This document shows positions 1,050-1,783 of a DNA stretch of 5,768 bases, piece by piece. A program made the translations under genes and the position numbers. The DNA is from a virus (taxonomy: Duplodnaviria; Heunggongvirae; Uroviricota; Caudoviricetes), in the IMG/VR virus record IMGVR_UViG_3300029484_000045; one strand, 5' to 3'. The notes below the pieces were generated by a model. That model saw only the letters and a list, made by a program, of their open reading frames with translations. It searched no databases and was not told the DNA's origin. Each line of letters opens with the position of its first letter. Within the stretch, counting starts at the first letter, position 1.

Positions 1050-1060
1050 TGTTTTTAGAG

Positions 1061-1114
1061 TTGTGGTGAATGCGCAGGCTGATGCGCGAAAGACATTGCA
1101 GCTATTGCGGAAAA
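1061..1114 (+). repeat. 54-bp direct repeat, copy 1 (PL transcript leader)
   Basis: Identical 54/54 to 1730-1783 (offset 669 bp); 5 of the 6 preceding bases also match. Contains hairpin GCGCA-GGCTGA-TGCGC at 1071-1088. Confidence 0.95.
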
Positions 1115-1373: not shown

Positions 1374-1619
1374 CTATTTGTCCAAATTCGGAGAGCACAT
1401 TTCAGAAAATTGGTCAGAAAGTCGCACTCGAAGAGCATCAGCCAACTGTTTCCTGATTTTTTCAGGTAACTCGTCGGCATCGCAGAAACAACAACGCTCG
1501 ATCATGTTGAAAGCCGATTCGTAGAACTGTTTCTGCTGAGTGTCGCTGAGACAGGAAAAGAGCGACGTTACGATGATTTTATTAATTGCATTATCAAGTT
1601 CTTTTTCATCAAAAGTCAT
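1374..1619 (-). CDS. Hypothetical 81-aa acidic protein, antisense to the PL operon
   Basis: Minus-strand ORF with ATG (complement of 1617-1619) and SD AAGGA about 6 nt upstream. Product MTFDEKELDNAINKIIVTSLFSCLSDTQQKQFYESAFNMIERCCFCDADELPEKIRKQLADALRVRLSDQFSEMCSPNLDK is net acidic with 5 Cys. No family recognised. Confidence 0.55.
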   Translation of the reverse strand: MTFDEKELDNAINKIIVTSLFSCLSDTQQKQFYESAFNMIERCCFCDADELPEKIRKQLADALRVRLSDQFSEMCSPNLDK

Positions 1620-1729
1620 TTGATTTTCCTTTTATGTATACGGGCTTAAAAGGATACCACCGAGCCTGAAGTGGTGAAAAGACAGGCACATAACAGCTAA
1701 GTATTTTCAACCAGAGAGAATCCTTAGCG

Positions 1730-1783
1730 TTGTGGTGAATGCGCAGGCTGATGCGCGAAAGACATTGCAGCTATTGCGGAAAA
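1730..1783 (+). repeat. 54-bp direct repeat, copy 2
   Basis: Identical to 1061-1114. Followed at once by an N-run, so the true repeat length may be greater. Confidence 0.95.

Follow-up and report, generated by a model that had tools for sequence, protein, structure and literature searches.

Lambdoid morons, such as bor and lom of phage lambda and those of HK97 and HK022, are units that consist of a promoter, a gene, and a terminator. The prophages of Escherichia coli K-12 offer two further points of comparison. In Rac, sieB (with ydaF-ydaG) encodes an annotated superinfection exclusion protein; it lies just downstream of the repressor, is oriented against the early-left operon, and converges on a small gene that is read in the PL sense. 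In e14, ymfI and ymfJ occupy the slot right after the S24 repressor gene ymfK and its PL, where they converge with a 63-nt overlap of their 3' ends, and an STnc100-like region follows. Both pairs, ymfI-ymfJ and sieB-ydaF, have been listed as convergent excludons from K-12 RNA-seq (PMC12288877).

We analyzed a stretch of 5,768 nt (IMG/VR record IMGVR_UViG_3300029484_000045), here called the window, in which a small gene, B, is oriented against the early-left operon and convergent with a gene, A, that is read in the PL sense. The kind of locus is already known, be it as an accessory gene set against the early-left operon, as a moron, or as an excludon. As far as our searches show, no earlier description exists of a dual-coding cassette that is free of indels and carries a portable junction element. 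B shares the orientation, position, and convergence of sieB, and the A-B pair shares the slot and convergent arrangement of ymfI-ymfJ as well as the STnc100-like region behind it. However, SieB is larger than B and unrelated to it in sequence, its overlap is only 4 nt, and Rac holds no homologue of A or B; the ymfI and ymfJ products likewise show no detectable similarity to either protein. Rac ydaG/ydaF and e14 ymfJ/ymfI were thus rejected as A/B homologues and are positional analogues only. Like a moron, B is a small accessory gene of variable presence that sits between conserved operon genes with a promoter-like element of its own, and the loci that carry B alone also have a terminator. Unlike a moron, the window presents a two-gene convergent cassette that has a dual-coding overlap and lacks its own terminator.

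The window covers the immunity region of a lambdoid E. coli prophage similar to SfV, e14, and CPS-53, together with its early-left arm. Domain matches identify a P22_Cro-type cro on the minus strand (2-184), truncated by the left end of the window, and a cI-type repressor with S24 peptidase and HTH domains on the plus strand (280-933), after which a hairpin with a T-run (approximately 957-985) forms the repressor terminator. A promoter scan revealed a PL-like promoter on the plus strand (TTGACA-18-TACATT, 1020-1049, with the -10 hexamer at 1044-1049), flanked by 18-nt inverted operators at 996-1013 and 1031-1048. Promoter and operators together are the counterpart of lambda PL/OL, lying 3' of the repressor gene and co-directional with it. 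Farther along the plus strand, a match to the STnc100 RNA family (Rfam RF02076) spans 1699-1920; it falls below threshold (38.1 bits, E=9e-6, versus a gathering score of 47) and is partly masked by Ns. The plus-strand genes yfdP, yfdQ (DUF2303), and yfdR lie to its right. The STnc100-like RNA is apparently the leader of the PL transcript, and a 2026 preprint places the STnc100 family together with the prophage small RNA (sRNA) PasD. Between the STnc100-like RNA and yfdP we also noted a 25-nt inverted repeat (1919-1943/1983-2007, 84% complementary, with 39 nt between the arms). In E. coli strain CT02, the corresponding region (1919-2007) is annotated by PGAP as a frameshifted hypothetical coding sequence, and it resembles a structured leader rather than a coding region.

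Two copies of a 60-nt direct repeat, 98% identical, enclose the A-B cassette. The left copy (1055-1114, plus strand) begins at the predicted start of the PL transcript, and the right copy (1724-1783, plus strand) makes up the 5' portion of the STnc100-like RNA. The flanking copies make the cassette look as if it had been inserted into, or recombined between, duplicates of the PL leader; in CT02 the right repeat is reduced to its first ~15 nt. A 40-codon ORF (MRRLMRERHCSYCGKELFGG...) begins inside each repeat (1070-1192 and 1739-1867, both on the plus strand), within what is presumably RNA leader. Two runs of N in the window, at 1284-1301 and 1784-1794, are masks that do not preserve the true length; the second breaks up the STnc100-like RNA.

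Within this region, the original prediction had placed an acidic 81-aa ORF with a CCFCD cluster and its own Shine-Dalgarno sequence, antisense inside the PL operon. The sequence bears out each of these features. Gene B runs from ATG to TAA on the minus strand (1374-1619), and its Shine-Dalgarno sequence, AAGGAAAA (1631-1624, minus strand), ends 4 nt before the ATG, with the GGA core 7 nt off; the AAGGAAA motif is preserved in every variant found in the slot after PL (the PL slot). The placement inside the PL operon is also right, with the PL-like promoter upstream and early-left genes downstream, and B cannot be made from PL, as had been pointed out, because it lies on the opposite strand. The length of the ORF alone is not significant, since the list of ORFs in the window contains six further wrong-frame or antisense ORFs of 81 to 122 aa. 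What takes B beyond chance is its conservation together with its codon-position statistics.

The original prediction recognized no family for the product, and the only match we obtained is to PHROG 3311, whose function is uncharacterized (phrog_3311, E=1.2e-55, positions 1-81 of 81). A word-seeded search with B returned near-identical E. coli copies only. An exhaustive HMMER scan of 1.8 billion representatives brought in relatives with 38 to 58% identity, and a profile search widened the family to proteins from Salmonella, Klebsiella, Yersinia, and Cronobacter. Overall, the homologues span 35 to 63% identity, so that the ORF is conserved in related elements down to 35-40%. A scan of genome contigs confirmed no relative, and a scan of viral contigs with P0031 gave none.

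Selection on the reading frame points the same way. Among six diverged cassettes, the pN/pS ratio (Nei-Gojobori) over B codons 1-54 is 0.33, versus 1.1-1.6 in the other frames. Within the part that encodes B only, 157 E. coli-type copies carry 8 synonymous and 3 nonsynonymous changes, a within-species sample that was picked by similarity to B and is biased towards intact copies. Residues 1-74 are conserved and the tail (75-81) is variable; changes in the last seven codons are silent in A, which puts the functional length of B at ~74 residues. On the strength of these comparisons, we regard it as nearly certain that 1374-1619 on the minus strand is a genuine protein-coding gene.

Gene A (orf33 of SfV, PHROG 3195) is read in the PL sense at 1167-1456 on the plus strand. 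Its frame is interrupted by the first mask, in which 18 Ns stand in for only 4 nt (AGTT) in relatives such as CT02. The true A therefore comprises 91 aa, as in those relatives, and ends at 1456. The 100-aa ORF that begins at 1167 and ends at 1469, on which the original prediction had relied, is an artefact of reading through the Ns. A is identical to WP_001514782 (strain CT02) and to SfV orf33, and phrog_3195 matches its N-terminal part. A is itself under selection, with a pN/pS of 0.33 over codons 1-64 versus 1.57 in a control frame. Its homologues (45-68% identity), all accompanied by a convergent B, come from Salmonella, Klebsiella, and Yersinia-type prophages and from metagenome contigs. 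The locus is misannotated in most records: most annotations call just one of the two genes, PHROG 3311 and PHROG 3195 are not recorded as a pair, and some gene callers stretch A to 122 aa through B.

The two genes converge tail to tail, a relationship that had been recognized from the window and that proves to be a conserved feature of fixed geometry. Their 3' ends overlap by 83 nt (1374-1456), so any full-length A and B mRNAs must overlap as well. Seven diverged versions, with 50-65% protein identity, place the ATGs of A and B 439 nt apart, and an eighth places them 442 nt apart; six cassettes align across all 439 nt with zero indels. Up to column 217 of this alignment, the third position of A is the most variable (0.51 versus 0.19 for position 2). 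From column 259 (window position 1439) to the B ATG, the third position of B, which is the second position of A over 1439-1619, is the most variable (0.57-0.69 versus 0.20). Between them lies a core (columns 218-258, window positions 1398-1438, both strands; A codons 73-86 and B codons 61-74) in which constraint is even across the three codon positions (0.21, 0.27, and 0.18). Synonymous divergence in the core is 0.23-0.27 in both frames, versus 0.72-0.78 in the single-coding parts. This pattern of substitution indicates that ~41 nt encode both proteins.

The same comparisons bear on whether the B ORF might be an antisense shadow of a longer plus-strand gene. Some annotation would suit such a shadow, since PGAP and the SfV record annotate only the plus-strand ORF and callers picked 122-aa versions of A in some relatives; phage 720R4, annotated by RAST, conversely records only B. 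The stop of A, however, varies among relatives (91, 93, 107, and 122 aa), and the protein sequence of its tail is not conserved. Over 1439-1619 it is the third position of B that varies, while pN/pS in the A frame reaches 1.58, and homologues of B exist without any A. We consider a shadow ORF extremely improbable. Conservation of the plus-strand frame across the whole interval is likewise not what we found: it does not hold over 1439-1619, and both frames are constrained only at 1398-1438.

The B protein contains 15 aspartate and glutamate residues against 10 lysine and arginine residues, with a pI of 4.56 and 5 cysteines, and every member of the family is acidic (pI 4.3-5.2). With an alignment of 15 sequences, AlphaFold (AF2) predicted three helices (residues 5-22, 26-46, and 53-75) at a pLDDT of 83; from the single sequence, the pLDDT was 58. 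B is a soluble, acidic protein of ~75 aa with three predicted helices. Fold searches with the predicted structure gave no specific or informative match, Pfam, NCBIfam, and PADLOC returned nothing significant for A or B, and PDB sequence searches with the profiles of B and A found no match below E=0.5. Models of known toxins, antitoxins, and defence systems matched neither protein, and the two genes are convergent rather than arranged in a co-directional operon. Profile and structure searches, which had been proposed as a check, thus add no informative fold or family beyond PHROG 3311. Speculatively, B most likely works by binding another protein, whether of the host, of an incoming phage, or A itself.

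The cysteine cluster invites the idea that B is a metal-binding or redox protein. CCFCD is present at residues 43-47, as had been noted, and CC.C (residues 43, 44, and 46) is invariant in the PL-slot subfamily. This invariance is confined to that subfamily, and a special role for the cluster is not supported. Only Cys46 is semiconserved across the whole family; members outside the subfamily have one cysteine or none (P0036 and P0070 have none), and a conserved set of four metal ligands is absent from the family. The cluster also falls at the end of a predicted helix without a second pair of ligands, and zinc-finger families gave no match. The restriction of CC.C to the PL-slot subfamily makes a metal cluster in B unlikely, and a metal-binding or redox function of this kind is, in our view, very improbable.

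Homology among the mosaic versions of the locus reaches ~75 nt beyond the B ATG, to position 1694, and this upstream segment contains a conserved element that includes TTCACC-16-TGGTATCCT. The original prediction had required a promoter for B within 1620-1730, and a promoter-like element does lie there. It is a candidate sigma-70 promoter on the minus strand (1678-1651), recognized as a conserved motif at a fixed distance from the ATG. A candidate -35 hexamer, TTCACC (1678-1673), is separated by a 16-nt spacer from a candidate extended -10 element, TGG-TATCCT (1659-1651), in which the TG occupies 1659-1658 and the hexamer 1656-1651. The predicted transcript start at ~1644-1646 would give B a leader of ~25 nt. 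Diverged homologues retain the pattern TT.ACC-16/17-TA...T, and its distance from the ATG stays the same. Of 24 distinct upstream sequences, 20 place TGnTAnnnT at -40 to -42, 2 place it at -48, and 4 are without it; GGTATC.T is invariant in the upstream alignment. A generic promoter scan missed this candidate because it matches the consensus at only 8 of 12 positions.

Two inverted repeats are superimposed on the element. Written on the minus strand, S1 pairs GCCTG (1687-1683) with CAGGC (1668-1664), and S2 pairs ACCAC (1675-1671) with GTGGT (1660-1656). Across the relatives, 97% of cells are paired and three pairs show compensatory double changes; values this high arose in 0 to 1 of 500 shuffles, and pairing in slid controls was 16 to 42%. 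The spacing of the repeats differs between relatives. This covariation, together with the variable spacing, fits an RNA or other nucleic acid structure better than a protein operator. The repeats are interleaved (1-2-1'-2') and might fold into an H-type pseudoknot or into two hairpins that exclude each other. Their G-U pairs slightly favour the B-sense strand, yet the one RNA end that has been measured, that of e14, belongs to the PL-sense strand. A hairpin at 1675-1656, flagged by a scan as a minus-strand terminator, was rejected because its T-run is not conserved in relatives. We also rejected the inverted repeats as an operator for the phage repressor, since the element is common to phages with different immunity regions.

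The e14 prophage anchors this element experimentally. The first 41 nt upstream of B are 100% identical to K-12 e14 (NC_000913.3, 1201418-1201458; L105, 5419-5459), and the identical stretch sits ~40 to 80 nt upstream of ymfI. The identity takes in the candidate -35 hexamer, the spacer, and the TAT of the -10 hexamer, inside which homology stops (TATGCT in e14), so the cargo behind the shared element differs between e14 and the window. In uninduced MG1655, Term-seq placed a 3' end of ymfI-sense RNA at 1201911, and Rho-dependent termination was significant in a region at 1202011, antisense inside ymfJ (bioRxiv 10.1101/2020.07.18.207399). These data indicate that ymfI, the antisense gene behind the element, is transcribed in the repressed prophage and that Rho ends its transcript within ymfJ. 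The same data contain an abundant PL-sense 3' end at 1201423, which scores low as an intrinsic terminator (1.18) and does not depend significantly on Rho (bioRxiv 10.1101/2020.07.18.207399). The plus-strand signals in e14 are weak, at 899 versus ~1e5 for the PL-sense end. Position 1201423 corresponds to ~1699 in the window, immediately beyond the interleaved repeats and at the start of the STnc100 match. The structured element thus marks a PL-sense RNA end in e14, probably a processing site ahead of the sRNA. Because this end is PL-sense, part of the conservation of the element may serve the PL transcript instead of a promoter for B. The e14 region homologous to the STnc100-like RNA is annotated as the ymfH coding sequence and contains Term-seq 3' ends at 1201257 and 1201195, so ymfH may specify an RNA instead of a protein.

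Gene B is restricted to lambdoid prophages of Enterobacterales, including those of E. coli and Shigella, and is antisense to the surrounding operon in every context examined. The A-B cassette directly follows the repressor and leftward promoter in SfV-like, Rac-like (YdaS/YdaT, RecE, KilR, and Gam), and Yersinia-type prophages. B without A is found between the Q antiterminator and holin genes, again antisense. In three such loci (L091, L101, and L102), a strong bidirectional terminator follows B and probably also serves as tR'. In the window, a scan of the minus strand from 1374 to the repressor terminator found no terminator-like site. Among 5,426 complete E. coli genomes, 479 (~9%) carry B with its upstream element at a coverage of at least 80%, O157:H7 strains included.

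Homology breakpoints define a mosaic unit (1165-1694) made up of both genes and the 75 nt that precede B; among 83 loci, the left breakpoint falls at 1165 or 1146 and the right one at 1694 or 1728. The slot shows presence and absence between syntenic phage genes, and e14 and one IMG/VR prophage (L035, IMGVR_UViG_2778261298_000002) carry other cargo there. The latter has a second cassette upstream of A-B in the same slot (reverse complement, ~1947-2760), composed of an ORF with a ClpX-type C4 zinc finger, a 15-codon remnant of the 5' end of A, a plus-strand ORF, and a different small antisense ORF, and then another copy of window positions 1653-1783 (promoter element and repeat). This type of arrangement also occurs in some complete E. 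coli genomes (H19 and H20), and the slot behaves as an array of exchangeable cassettes.

From these observations we propose how B may be expressed. B would be transcribed leftwards from its own sigma-70 promoter (-35 and extended -10 as above) and translated from its strong Shine-Dalgarno sequence. With a promoter of its own, it would be made while PL is repressed, in the manner of a moron and thus in the lysogen. We infer that expression occurs in this state because B is antisense to PL or PR' everywhere and because the 3' end and Rho data of e14 reveal transcription of ymfI there. The B transcript would run antisense through A until Rho or the reverse side of the repressor terminator stopped it. 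Upon induction, strong transcription from PL (or from PR' in the relatives with B between Q and holin) would proceed head-on through B, turning on A and the downstream genes and silencing B by collision and by the formation of RNA duplexes. A, under the repressor-controlled PL-like promoter, and B would then be expressed in a mutually exclusive, excludon-type manner. Taken as a whole, the view of B as a real gene with its own promoter that serves as an antisense accessory gene of the lysogen state seems to us fairly probable, and near-certainty applies to the first of these parts only. An exclusion or conversion role for B, as first suggested, is conjecture drawn from the comparable position of sieB in Rac.

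Transcription against the operon might itself be the main function, damping, in the lysogen, leaky read-through from PL or PR' into toxic kil or lysis genes, with the protein secondary. In its antisense orientation, B always follows PL or Q/PR' closely and precedes KilR, early-left, or holin genes, and the element would also drive unrelated antisense ORFs, namely ymfI in e14 and the small ORF in L035. Excludons also provide precedents (PMC12288877). Against this, B is under strong purifying selection as a protein down to 35% identity and its Shine-Dalgarno sequence is conserved. Given this selection, antisense transcription can only be an additional role, and we think it unlikely to be the main one.

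Another alternative makes A and B an antagonistic pair of the kil/anti-kil or toxin/antidote type, in which A, made from PL, would act on the host or on the phage programme, and B made in the lysogen would neutralize leaky A either as a protein or through the 3' antisense overlap. The fixed, indel-free geometry with its dual-coding overlap would agree with such a pairing, as would the wiring of A and B to opposite regulatory states. Likewise, in the contexts examined A always had B beside it, while B can stand alone, and one locus (L092) retains B beside a truncated A. Yet neither protein resembles a toxin, an antitoxin, or a defence model, and where B occupies the Q-holin slot on its own, it has to work in the absence of A. 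Moreover, the independent contexts of A are few, and physical overlap alone would make A travel with B. We regard antagonism between A and B as possible but rather doubtful.

A more elaborate form of the proposal, to which we also give only a small chance, joins both genes in a lysogeny/induction module. The B protein made in the lysogen and the A protein made from PL would antagonize each other, the overlap would enforce their exclusivity, and the portable junction would allow the cassette to be exchanged. If this were true, the pair could be, for example, an exclusion or abortive factor with an off-switch at induction, or a kil-type effector with its antidote. The portable junction would then combine a promoter that has a pseudoknot-like element with a repeated 5' end of an STnc100-type PL leader.

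A-B offers a clean natural example of antisense dual coding in which the double constraint is measurable. If B is made in lysogens, it would be a widespread and unstudied prophage accessory protein. The slot after PL repeatedly holds antisense genes, namely sieB in Rac, ymfI in e14, and B, and the shared junction element beside an STnc100/PasD-type RNA suggests a general architecture for lysogen-state cargo. It also suggests a model, open to test, of how prophage switches could keep expression mutually exclusive.
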